Part shown: in pieces, positions 12,219-52,578 of the stretch
Layout of the letters: each line of letters opens with the position of its first letter
How positions within the stretch are numbered: the first letter of the stretch is position 1
NCBI GenBank assembly: GCA_964106645.2
Contig: OZ067043.1
Origin: Podarcis pityusensis
Taxonomy: Eukaryota
Strand: one strand, 5' to 3'
DNA: 64,000 bases
Made by a program: the position numbers and the translations under genes
The notes under the pieces: model-generated
Databases searched by the model: none
Told to the model about the DNA's origin: nothing
The model's input: only the letters and a program-made list of their open reading frames with translations

Positions 12219-12315
12219 CTGGACTACTATCTCCAAAGTATCCAAAATGATCAGATTTGCTTCCGTTGCCAAGTTGCCATCGATAAGAGCCTCGTGTTCT
12301 ATCTCAGCTCGCGAT
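12219..12315 (-). CDS. DOCK7: DOCK7 exon SRAEIEHE...EIVVQ (97 nt)
   Basis: tag/gtgaga sites, phase 2/0. Confidence 0.95.
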
Positions 12316-15032
12316 CTAAAAAAGCATTAAAAATAAATTTTCTTTGGAGAAGCGAGGAAAAGAAACTTTTTGTTGCAGCTGGAGAAATAAGATTGCTTAT
12401 CAGATAATCACCATGCTCTAACAGAACACTTTAGCAGTGGGAACCATCAAAAACAGGCTCAACACCTAGCATCACCAGCTAAAGCAGGGATGGGGAACCT
12501 CTGGCCCTCCAGATGTTATCAGACTCCAGCTCCTATCAGGGCCCAGGCAGCATGGCCTATGGTCAAGGGCCTCTGCCTGTGAACCTAGAGATCCACCGCC
12601 AATCAAAGCAGATATTACTGGGCTGGGTGGACCAATGGCTTACATGATATAAGAACTTTAAGATAAAATAAAGCTAATAATGCTTGCAACAAAATGAGGA
12701 GCAGAGTAATAAACGATAAAGAGAAAAAGAAAACCACATTAGCATGTTCATGATAAGCTTGGGAGTACAGTGAGAGAAAAACAGCAGTGGGGGACCCATG
12801 GCACTCCCAATGTTGTTGGACTACAACTCCCATCATCCCTAACTGTTGACCACAGTGGCTGGATCCTATGGGAGTTGGGATCCACTGACATACAAAGGAC
12901 CACAGGTTCCTCATCACTTGCTTAAGGAGATGTTACTTTAACAGCTGATAGTGTGTGTGTGTTTGTATTTTATAGGAATCTGATGAGAAGCTTGAAGATA
13001 AACTGAAACCACTGCACTGTTAAAAAAATTCAGTGGGATTGTTGCACTTGCTAAGTTTGTAGGAAATTATGGTCTTCCAAATCTTATCAAACCACTTCTA
13101 TTCAGAAGGTTGCTTGGGTCCCTACTGTGCTACCAGGCAAAAGCCTACTAAAACAGAAGAGACTTTCAACAGCATTTTGTGATGTGGAATGGGGCAGCTC
13201 TTCAAAGAAAAATAGCCCACTGGATGGACAAACTGAGACAAGGTCTCAGGTAAGCCCTCTTCTCTTGAGAAACCAAGAGATTTTTCTTTCATGAAAAATA
13301 TGTGCACTATCACTGATCTATGGCTCCTCCTGGACATGTCTGAGTTGGCACACCTGAAGTAGTTATTTGAATCCTAACTAACACGATTTGTATATATCCT
13401 CCCTTTCATAAAGTTATGGGGCCTTTCCCTGCTAATGGTGCCCACTGTTTCTTCATGAAAGGCAAAGGATTAAAATTACAAAGTGTGCTGCAGAAACACA
13501 GTTTGGTAAGGGAAACTAGGGCTACACTGAAGAAAATGAGTATCTTTTTATTCATCTTTACATCAGTGAAGACAGCATGGCACTTTATGATGTGAACACA
13601 TGGTGGCGCTAAGAGAATAAATTTCTGACGAACATTACTAGCTAGTAGTTACCAGTGGAAATGTCTATGTGATGTATGAAACGTCCTGCTGGTGTCCTGT
13701 GGTGCTATAATGCACCATACATGCTTCCCAAAAGCCGGCAATGATCTGTCATAAATGGTAGCAGTACATGCTACTGTATGCACCAATCTGGAGCAGGCAA
13801 TATGCACTGCTAGCAACAGACCGAGCAACATCATTTTTACTGGCACATTGTTGGAAAAGTGGAATTTAGTCCTAATTATTCCACTTGACTTCCACTGAAG
13901 TATGTGTTGGAAGCTGGCCAGAGTGGCTGGGGCAACCCAGCCAAATGGGCAGGGAATGATAATAAACTAATAATAATAATTCAATTGGTCAATACTAGCT
14001 GTCTGCTAAAAATCCTACTAGGAGCATCCAGCTCCTCCTTCCCTCTAGGGATGTGTGTGCGTGCACAAGGGCAACTTCTATTGCAGTCCTTACATGAAGA
14101 GAAAGCTTTTGTAGAGCCTGGAGATGGCAGGGCTTGTACCTGGGACCTTACTACATGCAAAGCATATGCACTACCACTGAGTCACGCCTTTCCCACATTT
14201 ATTTCTGAGTCGGACAGAGCCTTCGGCAGAAAAGGAGAAAGCTGTCCAGCAGATGATGCATCAGCAGGCTGGACTGAGATCTTGCTCAACAATGAACATC
14301 TCCAGGGCTAAATATGTTTTAAGGGCACTGTCCATACACTCACACTGTGCTAGGCAAAACTGAATTGTACAGAAGGCAGTGAATGCCCTGGTCTTGCAGG
14401 TGCTGCAAAGGCTTTGAAAAGGAGAGTGCTCTAGAATTCTTAAAAGGAGATCTACAGATCTCTAGTTTATTCCTGCCTCCAGTTTATACGCCATGTGACC
14501 TTTTTGCATTTCGGCTGGTGGAACCTTTAACCAAACACCTCCAAAATTTTTACCAGGATCAAATTAAGACTACATCAAAAAGATGTAATGTTAATTGGAC
14601 TGTCAGGGAACTGCAATTTTCACACCAAAGTTCAGACGTGCCCAGCGCTATGGGGGGAAAAAGGGATACCCTGTAGCAGCACCCACCCACCCACCCTCAC
14701 ACTTCATAGCCAAGTCATGTTGCAAAAAACAAACAAACCCACAGACCTTCTGCAAAGCACCTCAGTCAAACAAAACCTGCACTCAGAGCCTTATTAGAAG
14801 ACAAAAAGCATGCCAAGCAAAGTTGCAACCGTAAGTCCTACACCTAACCAACACCCCACCCCAACCATTTCAAACCCCAGCAGGCACTCGTACAACAAAA
14901 GGAACCACTGAAGTCACAGGCAGGCATACAAAGCTGCTGCCAAGCGCCAAAAGCCAGAATTGCCATAGCAAAAGTACAGATGCACAACAGGGGAAAAAAA
15001 TTAAACACAGCAGTACACCAGTGCTACAGTAC

Positions 15033-15050
15033 CTGGCTGGTTTGTGGCTT
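15033..15050 (-). CDS. DOCK7: Candidate DOCK7 18-nt microexon (inserts SHKPAR)
   Basis: ccctaat branch point, tgtgctgtgtttttag|AAGCCACAAACCAGCCAG|gtactg; in frame in a phase-2 intron. Confidence 0.65.
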
Positions 15051-15478
15051 CTAAAAACACAGCACATGTGGGGAAAATAATCAAAGTGATGGATTAGGGT
15101 AGGAGAGGAGTCAGCTTGGAGAACTCCAGAATGGAGTGACCGATGGCACACATGCAATTACACCTGGTTACTCTTGGCTGCAACTTAAAGCATCCTATAG
15201 CCGTCTTATCAGTGCATTGGTCATCTTCCCTTACAGCACAATCCTATACAAGTCTAGTCAGGAGCAAGTCCCATTGAGTTTAATGACACTTACTACCAGG
15301 GAAGTGGGTGTAGGATTGCAACCTCCTGTTCTTTTAAATAAACAACACACGTGTGTGATAGCGCTATTCTTATGAGGTTAGTCCTATCTCAGTTCAGGTC
15401 CAGACCTGCTCATACTGTGAGGAGCAAGGCAGTCCCTATCTTGGCCAACTGGCCATTTCAACGTTAAAATGTTTGGGT

Positions 15479-15748: not shown

Positions 15749-15967
<219 letters not shown>

Positions 15968-41159: not shown

Positions 41160-41648
41160 ATGAAAATAATACTAGTATTACTCTTCGTAATTTCTCTAGT
41201 TGCTGCAACAAGAATAGATGGAGATGAGTTTTCCTTTGTACCAGAATCTCCTGAGCCAAGGTTTGCTATGTTACATGATGTGCAATTACTAGCCAACGGG
41301 CTGCTCCAGCTTGGGCGTGGCCTTAAAGACTTTGCCATCAAGACCAAAGGCCAGATGGATGACATCTTTCAGAAACTTCACCTTTTTGACCAATCTTTTA
41401 ATGAGATCTCAAAACAAGCCAATGAGATAAAAGAAGACGAGGAACAGCTAAAAAACACTACTTCTATGTTGCAAGTCAATAACGAAGAGATAAGGAACAT
41501 CTCTGTGGAGCTGAATTCCAAGATAGAAATACTTTCACGGGAGAAGATTCAACTTCAGGATAAAGTAGGGAAGCTGGAAGAAAAAATAACCAAATTGTTT
41601 CAGACCCAGATTGAAAATCAGGAGCCCGAAGAAATTGCAGCACTTAAA
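41160..41648 (+). CDS. ANGPTL3: ANGPTL3 coding exon 1 (signal peptide, SE1 motif, coiled coil; 489 nt)
   Basis: MKIILVLLF...RFAMLHDVQLLANGLLQLGRGLKDF...IAALK|gtaagt. Confidence 0.97.
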
Positions 41649-43659
41649 GTAAGTAGCAGGTATGGAATAGATTTAATATTTCCAAAGTTACCTGAAATGG
41701 TTTCCATGCTACTAATGGAATCCAAAGCTCCAAAGTCAATTATGACCTTGTTGCACTAATATCAGTGATGTAAAATATACTTTACCTAGTGGCTGTTTCA
41801 TACAGTTTTGCTTTGTTTCCAGTGATAAGTAAAATTAAGATGCTAAAATGTTTTTAAAAATTAAGATGCTAAATTAGATCACTCTTCGGGGAAGGAATAG
41901 CCAAAAATTCCTTTGCAAATCAAGTCAATTTGTGTTCAAGTACAAGTGTATTGGAAAGTACAGTACAGTATAGGAAAATGTTCTGATACCTTAGAGCAGT
42001 ACTCTCCAGATGTTGCTAGACATCACCTTGACTACTGGCTATGCTTGCTGGGGCTAATGGCAGTTAGGAGACCAACAATATCTGCAGGCACCATGTTGGA
42101 TACCCCTGCTATGATGATAATAATTTTATTATTTATACCCCGCCCATCTGGCTGGGTTTTCCAGTGCAAACATTTTCCAGTGCAAACTGCCCTTGTTTAT
42201 GCACAGGAATGTTTTCCACTTCAAACATTTCCAGGAAAGCCACATCACTGCATTTTGAGGAATGAAATGAACGTAGTTATCAAGAAAGCAACAACTGGTT
42301 CTCTACTGTAAATTTGTTCCTAAATGTTTGTTGTGCATTTATGTAAAATGTATCCTGTGGTACAAGGATACTTCATGACTTTTTCTTCTTTAATTAGTTT
42401 TTTGGAGGATAGTTTTGGATCAACAGCAAACTGCACGGAATATCTAGGGAACTAAACAATGGCTCACGTATGCTCTGTGCTTTACCAAAAAGCAACCAGA
42501 ATGAGATGAATTATTTTAACAAAAGCCAGGGATGGTCAGTGTTCTAAACATGTAAGCCACATGCTTTTGCGCCTAGAATTTTTTTCCTGGACAGTCCATA
42601 AAGGAAGATAATCAGAGTACCCTGGGTGGCTGGAACCGCTTCCCTTTCATAACATAAGACTATGACATAGGAAAGCCTCATTTATTTTTAAATATTGTAC
42701 TTTTCACAGCTTGTCCTTACAAAATTTAAAACAGACTGCTGCTTTAAAAATAATAATTCCACAATCAACACAACGAGTAACTCAGCTGCAACTGATAATG
42801 TATCAACCAAGTGCCAAAAGCAACATCAGCAAAGCGGCAAAAGATCATGAAATAATTTAAGCAAAAAGCCTAGAAAAATGAAATGGTGTTCAGCTGCTGC
42901 CCAAACAATAAAAGCACAGGCACAAAGCATACATTTTGGGGGCAGGATGTCTCCAAGATATGGCAAAACTACTAAGAGCAGTTGCAGCAGGGCCTCTCTG
43001 ATGACAGTTCACTGAGTAACTTTGTACAAGATGGTCAGGTTTGTATGAGTTGTTGTTGTTGCTGAAGTAGAAGGAAATGGCTTATGAATTCAGCCAGGGG
43101 AAAGGAAATAGAAGACAATCAGGACTCAAAGGGTAGGAATGAATTAAGAGTTTCTCCATGATGGCCAGCAGTGGTGTACACACCAGTACGAGAAGGGTGC
43201 ATCAGGTGGATTCTCAAAGACTGAACTCCTTAAACTTCCCTTTGGATATCAAAGGTCCTTTCCAGCAAAATGACTGCTTTTTTAGGGGGTGAGATGGGGT
43301 GGGATGCCAAAACAGATAATAAAAGCAAGTCCCAGACAGCAGCTTTGCTTCAGTTCCAAGAAACCAGCTCTTAATCCATTGCTTTTTTAGGGCAGAGTAC
43401 AGGATCCATAGATTATGAAGCAAAACAGGATTGTTGCATGATTTGACTATACAAAACCATCCCTCCAAATAAGACTGAGGATATACCTTCTACTTCTGTT
43501 TAGCATGCTAAGACAACAGCCTTTGGTGAAATTGGCTTGCACTGAGAGGTGCCCTTCTCCTAGCAGAAAGCCTCCTGCAAGGACCCTAAATCCAAAGAAG
43601 CTCTTCTATCAGCAATATTTTACACAAAATCTCTTTTTGTAGCCTACTAGAGCACATAT

Positions 43660-44016
43660 GGGACGTGGGTGATACTGTGGTCTAAACCACAGAGCCCAGG
43701 GCTTGCAGAACAAAAGGTGGGCGGTTCGAATCCCCGCAACGGGGTGAGCTCCCATTGCTCGGTCCCAGCTCCTGCCCACCTAGCAGTTCAAAAGCACGTC
43801 AAGTGCAAGTAGATAAATAGGTACTGCTCCAGCGGGAAGGTAAACAGCGTTTCTGTGTGCTGCTCTGGTTCGCCAGAAGCGGCTTAGTCATGCCGGCCAC
43901 ATGACCCAGAAGCTGTCTGTGAACAAATGCCGGCTCCCTCGGCCTACAGAGCGAGATGAGCGCACAACCCCAGAGTCGTCTGCGATGGGCCTAACGGTCA
44001 GGGGTACCTTTACCTT
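43660..44016 (+). mobile_element. Full-length Sauria SINE (lacertid type) in ANGPTL3 intron 1
   Basis: tRNA-like head with GGTTCGAATCC B box, (ACCTTT)n tail, 12-bp TSD TAGAGCACATAT at 43648-43659 and 44017-44028. Confidence 0.9.
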
Positions 44017-44404
44017 TAGAGCACATATACTACAAATCCAAATCAGGGGTGGAAAACCTGCAACCCTTCAGATGTTGGTGAACTTACTCACCAACCGCTT
44101 TGAGGGTTTTTTCTACAATAAAGCAGTATTTACATTTTATGAAATAAACTCGCAACATCCCTCAGCCACAGCCAGCATGGCTGGTGCAAGTTGTAGTCCA
44201 CCAAAATCTGGAAGGCCACAAATTCCCTATCCCTGGCCTAGATCCTCTGTACTCTGCATATTTCTCATGCTGTAAAACACTGACTCCACACTGAAATACA
44301 TCAGCCAGAGCTTGATCAAGAGTTCATGGACCTGCACTATTAAATTTTTTCCTTCTGCTTCATGGTCCTTTGAAACCAAGCCACTGTTTATGCTCTCCCT
44401 GCAG

Positions 44405-44515
44405 AACTTCGTGGAGCAGCAGGACAACCACCTCAGATCCCTTCTCAAAAGAGTTCAAGCGCAGCATGTTCAACTTGGCAAACAACAAGAACAAATAGAA
44501 GACCTGGAAGAGAAG
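44405..44515 (+). CDS. ANGPTL3: ANGPTL3 exon 2 (111 nt)
   Basis: cag|NFVEQQD...DLEEK|gtaaca. Confidence 0.95.
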
Positions 44516-45129
44516 GTAACATTGCTGCTTTACCAATGTCCTCCTCCAAATCAGGGCAGTCTTTTCAGGGATATCAGGTGATTTTTGAGACAGCTGGGAA
44601 CTGAGGTAAAGAGGTAAAGGGTGCGGAAATGGGGAGAAATAAAGAACTGATGGGAAAAGTACAAACTACTGAATAAATAGCAAAGTGTACAGGGAATAAC
44701 TCATCTTACACGATGATTTAATAATTTCAATACATTTCCATCATGCTCTAAGATAATTTGTGGACACTATGTGTCTTCACTGTGTATTCCCAATGTAGCT
44801 CCAGGATTGGAATGGAAAAATAACATTTCCTTGTTGTATTTCAACTTGAAAAATTCCGAAAATACTTCTTTCAGCTAACGATCTTTACCACTCTTGAGGT
44901 AAAAGAAATTGGGCATGCCCCACACATGACTGTAGAACGGTATTGGGGAGGGGAAATGCTTCATTCTCAGGAATTCTCTTGTAAAGATAAGAGGTCTCTA
45001 CCATCAGTAAACCACTTCTCCCCATTCTGTTATCTCAATATACCTGGGCTCCAAAGTGTCAGTAGATGAATGACAAATTTTACTAACAAAAAACAGACTA
45101 ATAATAATAATAATTCTCTGTCTCCCCAG

Positions 45130-45241
45130 CTAAGCGGCCCTGGTTTTCAAGACAACACACAGACTTTATTCCCCTTGAGAGAAGAAAATGAAACAGGGCA
45201 AACTGAACTTAATACAACAGCTAAAGTTCAAGATTACAAAG
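45130..45241 (+). CDS. ANGPTL3: ANGPTL3 exon 3, linker (112 nt)
   Basis: ctgtctccccag|LSGPGFQD...QDYK G|gtaact; divergent sequence, but its phase 0/1 joins exons 2 and 4. Confidence 0.88.
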
Positions 45242-46226
45242 GTAACTGCCCCTGTGGAAGAAGAAGAAACAAGTAATCCTTGTGTACACTGTCATCTGTG
45301 AATACTGTTCTAGTATACATTTTTCTACGAGTATACATCTTTGAACACCACACTGTTAAATTCTCTTTATTACTGTTGTTGGAAAAACAAGTGTGGCCTT
45401 CCACAACATGTTGCAGTGTATCTTCCTTCCAAAAAAGGAAAGCTCCTATTTAGGCTTCCAGTCATCCATTCCCTACAAGTAGGACATTCTACTCTATGTC
45501 CTTCCCACTCCCTGCTCAATTATTTTTTCTACTGTCACTGTTCATTCTGTTGTTAACGAACATGTTCATTTGGCTGTTTTGATGGAGTTTGTCCATTTAG
45601 GGTTGTTTTCTTTTTAAAAGCTTATTTCTGCAAGCCGCAAGTTTTCCCCAAGCATGCCAATACTTCCTTCTCGTTTCTCAGCGGCCATTTTGGCTACCAT
45701 TTTGTCTGCGCTACCAACTGGATGGGATAATGTGACATATTAAAAATAATAACAATCTAAAGAAGAATGGGAACCCTTTACAAAGTACTTAAAGAAACAA
45801 CAAAATGAACTGGACTCCTTGGCAGGTTTTGAATAAACATTCACAAACCTTTACTTGGTAATATATAGATAGATAAATAAATAAAGGATATTTACAATTT
45901 TATAACATGAAGAGAATAACCTGTGCTGAAAAATCAGAGAGAGGAGCTGAGGGAAGTCCGGGTGTGTGTGTGTTCCTTTTTGGGGAGGGGGGAGGGGGAA
46001 AATGGGAGTGGTGAATGAGGATAAAATGTTATGTTGAAATTCCTAATAAAAATATTCAAAAATTTTTTTTTAAAAAACAATCAAAGGAATGATTCACAGC
46101 ATTCTTTACTACAATATCATCACCCAAGTCCCTGCCACAATACTGAGTGCATTTCAGTGTGCCTTAAACTCACCCCGCAGGACTTTAGTCATACATTTGT
46201 AACTTTTAAAATCTTGTTGTTCTTAG

Positions 46227-46340
46227 GAAATGCTACTGATTGCATGTGGATATACAGCAGAGGTGAAAGATCTAGTGGCATTTATTCTATTAAGCCCAGA
46301 GGATCTGAGCCTTTTAATGTCTACTGTGAAATCAAAGCAG
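46227..46340 (+). CDS. ANGPTL3: ANGPTL3 exon 4, fibrinogen-like domain start (114 nt)
   Basis: tag|(G)NATDC...FNVYCEIKA|gtaagt. Confidence 0.95.
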
Positions 46341-46867
46341 GTAAGTCCAGCTACACCAGGGACCATCTAATTCTCCTGCTAAAAATCGTTATGGACTTCA
46401 TTTTCTGCCCTGAATGATGTTAAGTGTTCCATTAGGGAAACATAGGAAGTTACCGTATACTGAGTCAGGCCCATCTAGCTCAGTATCAGTTTAACTACAG
46501 TTGGTCAATAGTTAACTAGGATTACCAAATAAAAAAATGGTGCTGTCAGTAGGATCAATTATTTATGTTCCAACTGGGTCAGATGAGGATGCCACGACAG
46601 AATAATCATCACAACTAAACCTCTTCCAGCAGTGGACAAGTGGCATAGACAACTTTCACACCCATGCATGAAATTCCCATGGGAGTGAATTCAATGAATT
46701 TTTTCTATATTTAACTGCATTAAAAAGCATTCATGGGAGGCACAATATGGACTGAGCCTATGTTTGCTGCAGTCCAAAACTAGGGGGGAGGGCAATAAAG
46801 CAGGTAATATTTATAGTTTATAGTTTATAGTTTATAGGTAAGTTTATTTATCTTTTTTCATACACAG

Positions 46868-46963
46868 AAAGTGCATGGACAGTTATTCAAAACAGATCTG
46901 ATGGATCACTAGATTTCAACCAAACCTGGGAGAACTATATTCATGGATTTGGCAACCTGGATG
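46868..46963 (+). CDS. ANGPTL3: ANGPTL3 exon 5 (96 nt)
   Basis: Translated by hand: SAWTVIQNRSDGSLDFNQTWENYIHGFGNLD; cag/gtaaat. Confidence 0.95.
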
Positions 46964-49900
46964 GTAAATACATTCTCTTACATTTCCCTAAATAATTGAA
47001 GTATTTTTATGTGCTAAAATAGTAGTTGACTGTGTTTTATGTAAACATCAACACGTTAAAGTAAGTGAAAAACACCTTTGGGAAAATAAGGGATGATTCA
47101 CATTTGCATGTTTTAAACAGGTTAGCTTTCTTCACCCCCATTCTTTTGATCTGAATTGGTGCACAGTGAACAGCTTGAGATTCAATCGACCCTTGCACTA
47201 ACCCACAGAGCATCAAAGGCAGGGTGCCCCTCTAAAGACCAGTTTGCTAAAAGCACATGCAAGATGGGTTAACAGAAAAGAAGTTAATCAGAATGAATAA
47301 CCTGTCAAAACTGGGTTTTATGGATAGATTCTAATATACCTACCACTCAGATGTTTAAAATACATACACAATGTAGATTAAGAAAAATATACCCTGCACT
47401 TCAGATACATATCCACCTTCATGTTTACATGTACAGAACATTTTTGCTTAGGGCTTAAAACCGTTGACTAAGTCTATCAGGCATTTGACTGATGCAGATG
47501 ACCTGTACAACACCAAATTGAGATGTACAGTTCATGTGGATGAATCCAAGAATTTAGTTGATTTATGTACTGCTTGGCAATCCCAATCACTACCTTCTTC
47601 TATCCTGCCCTCACCCCACTATAACCATGTAATACAAGGAGAATCTTGCATGGCAACAGCTGCAGTTCCATGCAATGCAAGATAGGCAGGGCTCAACCTG
47701 ACCATTTCACAGAATCACTCTCTTCAGTTTTCACAATTTACTGCACCCTTTTGCAGGCACAAGACTCCCCTCTGTGTTTTTAGTGTGAAGCTTTTCCCTG
47801 GCACTGGCAAAGCAGCACTGGCAGCTGCTGTGCTATTATCAAGAGGTAGTGCCTGCTTATGTTACTTCAAAAACTTTCCAAGTTGAGTGAGGAAGTATGT
47901 AAGGAGGCACTTTCTAGGTGTCTAAAATACAGTACTAAAGTACTAAAGATCTGTAAACATAGCAATGCAGACAAAAAGATATTTCTATTATCTCAATGTT
48001 TTTTGCGGAAAATATTGGACCAAATGAGGCCAGAAAATACTCAAGAAACTTTACAGCATATTAGAATTAAACTTCATAATATACAGTAGAAAAGTTGCCA
48101 TGTGGTGACTGATACAACAGGCGGTTTTCATGCATATCACACAGTGAATAGCACTGGGTCAACATAAAGCTCAATGGGTTTCCGCTGAAACAAAATCCTG
48201 GTTTCTAAACTTAACCAGCCAATCGTCCCATCAGAGGACCAGGCAGAAAGAAACCACCCTTATTTGCACTGGTTAATCATCCACTTGGGACACCAAGGTG
48301 CAGGCTAACAGACACATCATCCAGCACACTTTGCTAAAGGTATGTTCCAAGCTGCTTCTACAGAGGTGCTAAAGGGGGGCAAGAATTGAAGTGGCAACCC
48401 TGTTTGGCCACCTGGACAGGGAGCAACATATATTAGCAATTATCCTGAAATCACTTAGTGAAGTCCTGAAATATTTTGGTCCATAAGTAGTTTGATTGGC
48501 TTCATTATCATTACTCGCAAAACCATAATTTCAAGACTGCAAAGTCAATTTTATACACCTGGAGCTGGACTAAACTAACCTGGTGCACTAGTGGAAGCCA
48601 GTGAAAGAACTCATGGTGCAATGGGCCTCCTCCTCCTCCTCAATCTGCTCTGGGGGGTCAGGAGAAGTCCCAGAATAGTGTGCAAGCAGAGGAGAGGGGA
48701 GATTCTGCCTGGAATGCAGAAATGTTTACACTTACAGAACAGTTGTAATAGCATGGTCTTCAATTCCACCCCTAGCATCTAGGGATGTCTCAAAACATCT
48801 ATTCTTCTATTACTTACATGAAGTTAAATAATACAGTCAAATCACTGGCCCATCCAGCAATGGCTCTCCAAGATCTCAGGCAAAGAGCCATTTCCTATTA
48901 TTGCCATCCAAGATCCTTGTTACTAAAAACTCCTGGGGACTGAACTCAGGATGTTAGAGATGCTAAGGAAATGCTGTTATCAGTAAATTATGGGCTTTTC
49001 TAGCTGTTATTTGCTATGTAGAGCAGACATGTCTAACATCAAAGACTCTCTTCTTAAACCAGAGTGCTATTGGATTCCGACCAAATGTTACTGGATTCCA
49101 ACTCCCATCAGTCCCAGACATCATCCAGCAACATCTGGAGGGCCAGGGGTTTCCCACCCCTGCCCTAAAATTCATTACATAGAAAATATTTCCACAAAAT
49201 GTGGCCCACCAAGAGTTTGATGGTTTGCAGTTCACTTGAACTCATGGACAGTTTGTTCCAAAGAGAGGTAGGGGAAATCCAAATAAATTTAGCATGTGCG
49301 ACACTGCAAAAATGTCTGAACAATCACAAGGTCTTCTTAAGGAAAAACTTCACATGTAGATTAGCTCAAAAAGTCGTTAAGTGCCATCTCCCCATTTCCT
49401 CCCAGCTGGGACCTGTGTTATATAATTCGCATTGAAGACACAAACAAGCCCTGTACAATTTCATTTCCTCCTAATAGCTACAAATTGTTTTGGCATTCCC
49501 ATAGCTTGTTACAGGTATTTTCAGTCCTCCTTATATTAATTGGAAACTATGGTAGCTCCATTTATGACATGAGATTGGATTGTCTATGGTGTATGAAAGT
49601 CCCCACAACAATATTGTTCTCAATATGATATTTTGCATTTTTTGTTTTTACATTAATGGTCTTCATTAAAAAATACTGCCCCCTACATAAAGCTCAAGCA
49701 CCTGGTTCACATGACACAGGAAGCCAAGCTGTGGTTCAAGAGTGAATCTTCCTTTAAAAAAAAAAAAGAGTTCATAAGGTGAAGTTTTCAAAACTTTTGA
49801 AATCAGAGCTTTAAGAAACGCTGACTTGGGGAGAAAGTTGATAATACTTTCCCACAGCAGCAAAATCAAAGTTGAAACTGAAATTTCATCATTACATTGT

Positions 49901-50621
49901 ATAAAGTTTGCCTGGTGGTGAAATCTGAAACATAAATGCAAAATCACATGTTTGTTTTAAAAGGGTACATTTTATCTTTTCCACTATTTCTTGCTCAAAT
50001 GTCCTCTCATTTACCTTTGCCAATTTGGAATGACTCCACTGGCCCAACTTTAGTGAAAAAATGCCTTAATGTAGTTATTCTGGAAAAATGGTAGAAGAAA
50101 ATACAACTATTTTTTAAAAGTAGAATCCAATGTGCACTTACTTCTAAGAAAACATGCTTAGTTTTGCACTCCATGTAATTCACTTAGAATGTTCAATTTA
50201 AATGTGCTGTGGTAAATGACACTACCTAAATGCCTATTAAGAGTGCATTCCTTTCTCATGGCTGACACTCCATTTCCATAGCAATTAAATTTTATATATG
50301 CCACTCGGTTCACTTATCAGAGAGATTCATTCACACACTTTTGTTAAGTATGCCTTGCATTATCCCTGGCAGACTCTGGCAAGCTGCAAAGTTCCATTCC
50401 GTTCATATTTAGTTTTAGTTTCCTGTTTTAATTGATCATTAGTGCATAATCTAAAAGTTGTAAACAAAAAAGAGATATCTCCAAGAGAGATTATCTGAAA
50501 AGTTCAAGGGTTCCCAAGACTCAGGTTGTCTGCTTAATTAACCGAATTAGTAACTCTAACTTGCTTATGTCTTGCCATCAGCCTAACCTAATAGTTCAGT
50601 CTGTGCAATTTGTATTTTCAG

Positions 50622-50894
50622 GAGAATTTTGGCTGGGCCTACAAAAGATCTATTCCATTGTAAACCAAGGTGACCACATCCTGCGTATTGAGCTGGAAGA
50701 CTCAAGAGCTAACCAACGTTATATTGAATACACATTCACCATGGGAGGTTCAGAAACAGACTACACTGCTCTTCTCTCCAGGATTACTGGGAATATCCCT
50801 AATGTTCTGCCTGAACAGAAAGAAGTGAAGTTCTCTACAAAAGATCACAACAGCAACACTGAAAGAAAAGTCAACTGTCCAGAAAACAATTCAG
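50622..50894 (+). CDS. ANGPTL3: ANGPTL3 exon 6 (273 nt)
   Basis: GEFWLGL...FSTKDH...CPENNS; cag/gtagtc. Confidence 0.95.
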
Positions 50895-52393
50895 GTAGTC
50901 TTTTTTGTACAAGCTGCTGCTTTAGTTTTTCTCATAAATCGGGGGGGGGGGGGATACGTTGTGGAAGATATAGCTGCAACTTTGTCTACAAAACATATAT
51001 TCCCTGTTCTGAAAAATGAAGCATTAGGAACCAGAAGCAAATTCTGAAGAACAACTGGGTATGTTGGGTGAGGGACTGCACATCTGAGTGATCAATCATG
51101 TTTAGAAACAAACTTATCTGCACTCAGAAAACTAGCATGTCATAGACACTATAACTTTTTTGCCTCAATATGGTATTTTATAAATGTATATTTAATATGG
51201 AGAAGTATCCAGTTGTGTAATTTTCCACATGCATTCTGTACTATCTTGGAAGGCTACATCTTATCAATCTCTGAACATGTGACTCACCTTCTAGTGCAGG
51301 GATGGATAACCTGTGGCCCTCCAGATGTTGGTGTAACTCCCATCCTCTCTATTGGCCATGCTGGCTGGGGCTGCTGGGTGTTGGAGACCAACAACATCTG
51401 CAGTGGCACAGGTTGCCCCATCCTTGCTCTAGTGTTTCTCTCCCATATATTTCTAGTCCCTAACTGAACGTCAGGCAGAACTTTAGGAAACAGAAATAGA
51501 ACTAAAAAGTGAAGTGATCTGGCAAAGATCTAAAAAGAGGGAGCATAGCACACAGGAATAACAAACTGGTGACATGATTTCCTGTAGAGCACCTCCAAGT
51601 AAATCCGCAAGAAGTGCTGGTATTCTATATACTTTCTCCTTAAACCGGGCAAAAACGTTATTCTGAAATTCCCTTTTCTGCCCCCTCCAATGTGGAAAAT
51701 TCAAATTTGCAGCATGAATCAGTAAGTTATTTTAATTCATTTGCAGTTCAATCCTATTTATTTTACTTCCTCTAATAAATGTAGATAACTATGAAACTGT
51801 ATAAAGTTCACCTCTGAGCGTCAGTTTTACAGAGAATGTAAGTGTTTGAGATAGATAGGAGTGCTGTGGGGGTTTTTAAATCTGACACTGGGTAATTAAG
51901 TTAAAATAGAATGAATTCTTTTTTAAAGAAGAGAGGTGGGGGTATGGGCCATTGTATGCAGAAGATACCCTGGCATTTCCAGGTAGAGATGAGTATATCT
52001 CCTACTGAAACGCTGGAGAGGCAATGCCAACGTAGACAACTCAGCATAGGGCAGCTTCCCATGTTCCTAGAGAGAGGGGTGGTGGACATTGAGGATTTGT
52101 GACCCAATCTGGCAGATGTTATGACAAGCTTCATAGAGGTACAGTTCTTCCTAGTTCCCTTCCCCCCGATAAGCAACTCCTCATACAAGGGAGCCAGCTA
52201 CTATTGATGCTACCAAGGATTTTGAGAAGTGACATCAAACATGGCATGAAAAGAAATGTCAGAAATCCTCCTCCACACATGGAAGCCACTTCTAGTGCCT
52301 AAAGGGGGGACTATGAACCACGCCCTTAGTCCTTATGATTGTACTACAGTGTTGTTGCTATCAATTAAATGGTGCTTATAATTTCATCTTCAG

Positions 52394-52578
52394 GTGGCTG
52401 GTGGCATACGGCATGTGAAGAAACAAACTTGAATGGAAAATATATCAAGTCAAGTTCAAGAGGAAAACTGGAACGGAAAAAGAGAGTGCTCTATTGGAAG
52501 CCTCAGAAAGGAAGGCCCTATTTTATCAAATCAACCAAACTGATGATACATTCTACAGATTTTGAAAATTTTGACTGA
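52394..52578 (+). CDS. ANGPTL3: ANGPTL3 exon 7, coding part to TGA (185 nt)
   Basis: GGWWHTACEETNLNGKY...STDFENFD*; total CDS 1380 nt = 459 aa. Confidence 0.95.

Follow-up and report, generated by a model that had tools for sequence, protein, structure and literature searches.

The 64,000-nucleotide stretch of Podarcis pityusensis DNA analysed here (the window) represents the middle part of lizard DOCK7, since the exons of a DOCK7 isoform from Podarcis raffonei align to it one after another along 62178 to 7313 (minus strand), most of them at 95-100% identity. Within a 17.6-kb DOCK7 intron lies a nested gene on the plus strand (~41160-52575) with a first exon encoding a signal peptide and a coiled-coil-like segment and three exons encoding a fibrinogen C-terminal domain, which we take to be the known arrangement of ANGPTL3 inside DOCK7. 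The lizard copy of a 15-nt microexon encoding STGWE is found at 5556-5542 (minus), and the 22 nt next to its acceptor contain no UGC. The subject of this study is a different element, an 18-nt frame-preserving cassette microexon at 15033..15050 on the minus strand that adds the peptide SHKPAR and whose sequence had been quoted exactly in the original prediction. It sits in the 3.4-kb intron 15749-12316, between an upstream DOCK7 exon (ERSPSG…EKLDK, 15750..15846, minus) that ends in phase 2 at 15750 (AA|GT) and a downstream exon (SRAEIEH…IVVQ, 12219..12315, minus) that starts in phase 2 at 12315 (AG|A). Because both introns flanking the microexon are phase 2, its inclusion keeps the frame, as had been claimed, and yields LDK-SHKPAR-SRAE.

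The splice sites are those of a canonical microexon: in minus-strand letters the acceptor is TAG and the donor GTACTG, the length falls within the 3-27 nt range of the class and the frame is kept. The 3' splice-site region (15051..15133) contains a CCTAAT branch point (15098-15093), a pyrimidine tract, a UGC (15064-15062) and the AG acceptor. Relative to the acceptor, CTAAT begins at -47 with the branch A at about -44, the TGC lies at -14 and the stretch from -66 onward is free of AG, a zone of about 64 nt; a branch point near -45 and a UGC at about -14 had both been foreseen. Such an arrangement, with a UGC in the interval from branch point to AG, a pyrimidine tract upstream and a long AG-free zone, is the layout of SRRM3/4-type microexons. 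The donor (CAG|GTACTG) matches six of nine consensus positions by a crude score that is not a maximum-entropy one. Folding of the acceptor region was no better than that of shuffled sequences (z +1.3 and +1.4), and no conserved RNA structure was found there. Downstream, the flank at 14733..15014 is rich in U+G and in YGCY, UGU and UGG motifs; the first 300 nt are 71% U+G, a level reached by 1 of 1274 minus-strand windows, in line with the UG-rich flank originally described.

A crude scan of the minus strand for frame-keeping AG…GT segments of 3-30 nt returned 160 candidates, two of which passed a crude microexon filter, the microexon at 15050-15033 among them; the thresholds were chosen with the target known and the established STGWE microexon fails the UGC filter, and hence the scan carries no p-value. 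The only other candidate to pass is a 6-nt segment at 866-861 (minus) with a UGC and a strong donor.

Scanning metagenome contigs for the pattern produced two matches. One (L003) was discarded as a chance match within unrelated coding DNA. The other (L002) is vertebrate host DNA that carries the orthologous DOCK7 intron; it probably comes from a bird, and one of its ends resembles a CR1 repeat of a kind typical of birds. Lizard and L002 are identical at all 18 positions of the microexon. Across the block 15015-15133, 108 of 121 aligned columns are identical (89%), comparable to the upstream coding exon (105/118), and no other part of the introns aligned over 2.5 kb. The branch point, the UGC at -14 and the donor are all kept, so the splice sites are conserved in the intron alignment that had been proposed as a check. 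The conserved block extends 83 nt upstream of the microexon and only 18 nt downstream, the latter comprising the donor and the first 18 nt of the downstream intron (15015..15032); the UG-rich tract beyond aligns in patches. The two RBFOX motifs pointed out earlier (TGCATG at 15156, GCATG at 14813) do occur in the lizard, but their role as regulatory elements is not supported: GCATG counts are at chance level (reached by 78 of 213 windows of the downstream size and 85 of 426 of the upstream size) and neither motif is kept in L002. We therefore reject RBFOX control of the microexon as unsupported.

Going beyond the original prediction, we find that RefSeq already includes the microexon in its models for many jawed vertebrates other than mammals. 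Isoforms from Podarcis raffonei (XP_053248175.1), Grus americana (XP_054688944.1) and Xenopus laevis (XP_041446320.1) carry SHKPAR at the identical junction, which identifies an orthologous exon and answers the RefSeq check that had been suggested; these are automated models with no tissue, regulator or function attached. The same insert occurs at this junction in gene models of other squamates, of birds, turtles and alligator, of amphibians, and of coelacanth, ray-finned fish, sharks and rays. A search with a neighboring exon, whose bait did not contain the insert, already recovered the microexon in horned lizard, coelacanth, catfish, seahorse and salmon, and a search baited with the junction found an insert there in 67 of the 120 matches listed (of 580), four of the 67 with a different shark insert and none mammalian. 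Among scorable isoforms the insert was present in 12/36 from birds, 6/32 from squamates, 4/7 from turtles and crocodilians, 27/36 from amphibians and 5/19 from cartilaginous fish, fractions that are biased by the bait, depend on taxon labels assigned by hand and leave out 4, 1, 3, 2 and 0 unscorable rows, respectively. Among these orthologs, Xenopus laevis, Discoglossus, smelt and catfish each have gene models that include the exon next to others that skip it. The peptide drifts along the tree, from SQKSVR in sharks and rays through SQKAVR in bichir and sturgeon, SHRSVR-type peptides in teleosts and SHKTVR in coelacanth to SHKPAR-type peptides in tetrapods. Of the six-residue inserts of this type, 88/88 have K or R at position 3 and 82/88 have S or T at position 1, where the 88 are isoforms rather than independent events and the last R is forced by the splice phase. 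The joint occurrence of insert and STGWE in non-mammalian models (64/19/22/81) reflects annotation depth and was set aside. Paralogs and distant DOCK-C proteins contain no matching insert, and the loop is variable in them.

Several neighboring variants were seen in these models. In salmon, anchovy and moray eel (P0104, P0114, P0181, P0513) the microexon peptide is followed by a related run of 18-23 further residues, a teleost extension or a second small exon. At the same junction, shark models show another 6-residue insert, of the IFVCDR type (P0173-P0175, P0180, P0281, P0282, P0285, P0287-P0289), either alone or after SQKSVR, which is probably an alternative acceptor. We considered whether this IFVCDR/IFICDR insert (8 isoforms) is a version of the microexon and rejected the idea; it is a separate element, because 2 isoforms contain it together with SQKSVR.

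Could the segment nevertheless be a chance pseudo-exon or an annotation artefact? In four of 24 sequencing runs without tissue labels, unspliced contigs cross the microexon in three, and the matches listed were filled by interspersed repeats, with no exon-exon joint among them; this is the one point on the side of an artefact, and given the shortened listings it carries no weight either way. Against it, length, position, phase and a related peptide are the same from sharks to birds, the flank is conserved as strongly as coding sequence, and in a protein assembled from a sequencing run (P0079) the microexon, in its fish version, follows directly on two upstream exons. We regard an artefact as extremely improbable and the 18-nt segment as almost certainly a real cassette exon, a judgment for which conservation is decisive. 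The exon is genuine and ancient; automated annotation already contains it, whereas the papers searched do not describe it.

The architecture of its splice sites makes it moderately likely that the microexon is neural and under predicted SRRM3/4 control. We envision that an exon this short would escape ordinary exon definition and be skipped by default, the whole intron being removed in one piece, and that where SRRM3/4 is expressed it would act through the UGC at -14, which lies downstream of branch point and pyrimidine tract but before the AG, to promote inclusion. A study of this class (10.1101/2024.09.17.613571) reports that 74-79% of SRRM3/4-dependent microexons have a UGC in this interval, that it is not required for the response to SRRM4, and that donor strength also plays a role. 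The UGC is only a 3-mer, which counts against the SRRM3/4 reading.

A competing explanation is that the exon is real but responds to CELF, MBNL or ESRP proteins acting through the U+G-rich downstream flank; inclusion would then occur in muscle, in epithelia or broadly and in part, in place of a neural switch run by SRRM3/4. The downstream 300 nt hold 10 YGCY (a count reached by 2/213 windows), 17 TGT (4/213) and 8 TGG[TG] (4/213) motifs, which are of MBNL, CELF and ESRP type. The insert is also present in many RefSeq models, which may mean inclusion beyond brain samples. In addition, the zebrafish neural-exon table of PMC12626424 lists no 18-nt dock7 event; the 15-nt event is likewise missing there. 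However, the block conserved with L002 is mostly upstream (83 nt versus 18 nt), the UG-rich tract is patchy and the upstream layout fits SRRM3/4 targets. We consider control from the downstream flank rather unlikely, about half as credible as the SRRM3/4 model.

The mammalian sequences tell a different story. The insert is absent from all 87 scorable isoforms among 96 examined, a set of about 40 species that includes a marsupial longest isoform and chimpanzee and leaves out the full-length human and mouse sequences and the monotremes; the original statement that canonical human DOCK7 lacks the peptide is in keeping with this absence. Annotation in mammals does capture DOCK7 microexons, as the 15-nt STGWE microexon is present in 24 of the first 84 mammalian isoforms, and RefSeq isoforms from pig contain the insert in 0/9 and STGWE in 4/9. 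Sequence clusters point in the same direction: in the insert-bearing amniote cluster (580 members) the 15 members listed all have the insert and none is mammalian, though mammals and birds cluster together elsewhere. Judged from protein annotation, loss of the microexon in (therian) mammals is likely, and the exon appears to be ancient and lost in this group rather than merely unannotated. Its persistence in mammals as a rarely included, unannotated exon is improbable, given 0/87 isoforms from about 40 species in which a 15-nt microexon was captured in 24/84 and an insert cluster that lists no mammal. What speaks for persistence is that a small part of the large clusters was listed (15 of 580 and 15 of 3096 members in the two biggest), that the comparison is one of annotated proteins, and that the lizard Pogona also scores 0/9.

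In Pogona vitticeps the microexon is present in 0/9 scorable isoforms (P0186, P0187, P0271, P0273-P0278), several of which have STGWE, and this could be a second loss or an annotation miss. The microexon is likewise absent from four UniRef models of Podarcis muralis DOCK7. Such models indicate that annotation may miss the exon or that lineages may lose it.

Mammals vary the same loop in another way. A 9-residue insert 33 residues upstream, at the junction 17151/15846 (P0054, P0188, P0197, P0198, P0200, P0226, P0228, P0231, P0232, P0312, P0525), is carried by 11 isoforms from mammals and by a killifish model, and by none of the sauropsid, amphibian or shark isoforms compared. The lizard has no GT 27 nt beyond the donor of this junction. 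These observations raise the possibility, which we put forward tentatively and hold to be somewhat less probable than its negation, that DOCK7 had a neural SRRM3/4 microexon which lineages as far apart as sharks, birds and lizards have maintained for more than 400 million years, but which disappeared at the root of the mammals, where a different, 27-nt splice extension now diversifies the same flexible loop. Such a turnover would be rare, since no class of alternative exons is more conserved.

At the protein level, the microexon adds a short basic peptide upstream of DHR-2, as originally claimed: SHKPAR occupies residues 1452-1457 of P0205, in the armadillo region and about 210 residues before DHR-2, whose lobe A begins at 1668. 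Its S/T-x-K/R pattern presumably resembles a weak kinase site, a speculation on our part. In AlphaFold models of ~410-residue fragments, the helices do not change when the insert is left out (57-row alignments; mean pLDDT 84 with it and 86 without it). At fragment residues 133-138, the insert forms the end of a loop with pLDDT below 50 (98-131), ahead of a helix that starts at 140; the low confidence of the loop means that no contact can be read from the models. A fold search with the AlphaFold model found nothing at E up to 0.001 beyond generic helical repeats. We predict that six residues whose third position is always basic, placed at the end of a loop ahead of a long armadillo helix, would act on a contact of this Rac1/Cdc42 exchange factor, be it with a partner, through phosphorylation or within an oligomer, and not on its catalytic site. 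Given inclusion, and by analogy with a paralog discussed below, such an effect on the loop is reasonably probable.

Our favored model, held with moderate confidence, is that DOCK7 has an optional 18-base exon, present from sharks to birds and lizards, likely included in neurons through SRRM3/4 and probably lost in mammals, which would lengthen a flexible surface loop and leave the fold unchanged. Microexon catalogues start from human and mouse and a mammal-lost exon is therefore invisible to them. If the exon is neural and truly lost, it would constitute a dated, testable feature of a neuronal Rac1/Cdc42 activator by which mammals differ from other jawed vertebrates, one that could be assayed in chick, Xenopus or zebrafish, and its host gene controls neuronal polarity and cortical development. 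The mechanism is not new and the effects of single microexons are usually small; deletions of single microexons in zebrafish usually produced mild phenotypes or none (PMC12626424).

No description of the 18-nt exon was found in the papers searched, a scope that lies outside VastDB and most subscription papers, and further supplements may list the chicken or zebrafish exon. A search by gene name in the supplements of PMC7821500, PMC4317164 and PMC12868881, whose tables may be coordinate-only, gave no DOCK7 match. The published DOCK7 microexon is the 15-nt one (PMC7935315, PMC12626424, PMC12626420); it is the single DOCK7 event in the human SRRM4-overexpression table (PMC7935315), and PMC12871342 describes a DOCK7 microexon as conserved between human and chicken. 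The sole dock7 event in the zebrafish neural table (PMC12626424) is DreEX0028015, a 20-nt, frame-shifting, strongly neural and SRRM-dependent exon without a human ortholog, and probably another exon since its length differs (20 versus 18 nt); the two tables bearing on its position appear to rest on different genome assemblies.

Regulation through the armadillo domain has a precedent in DOCK6. According to PMC13503879, this domain sits between DHR-1 and DHR-2, its contacts keep DOCK6 auto-inhibited, DOCK6 is further tuned when a disordered armadillo loop is phosphorylated, and DOCK7 is suggested to behave in a similar way; the tuning role we propose for the DOCK7 insert is a prediction by analogy with this regulation. 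In the cryo-EM structures of this paralog (9vm2-9vm8; PMC13503879) the DOCK7 junction aligns at DOCK6 1376/1377 in the armadillo region, DOCK6 has no insert, and the auto-inhibitory contact (V918/S920/R924) and the S1194 loop lie elsewhere in the sequence. The STGWE microexon (HsaEX0020638; zebrafish DreEX0028014; PMC7935315 and PMC12626420) shares with the 18-nt exon its gene, its class and the preservation of frame, but it lies in another intron, is inserted within DHR-2 lobe A rather than the armadillo region, is conserved in mammals and has a measured response to SRRM4. Finally, the SRRM3/4-dependent neural microexons (3-27 nt), as portrayed in PMC12626424 and 10.1101/2024.09.17.613571, resemble the 18-nt exon in length, frame, a UGC near the acceptor, a long AG-free zone, conserved flanks, jawed-vertebrate depth and a GTPase-regulator host. 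Unlike the studied members of this class, most of which are common to human and mouse, the DOCK7 exon is apparently absent from mammals and its neural control is predicted.
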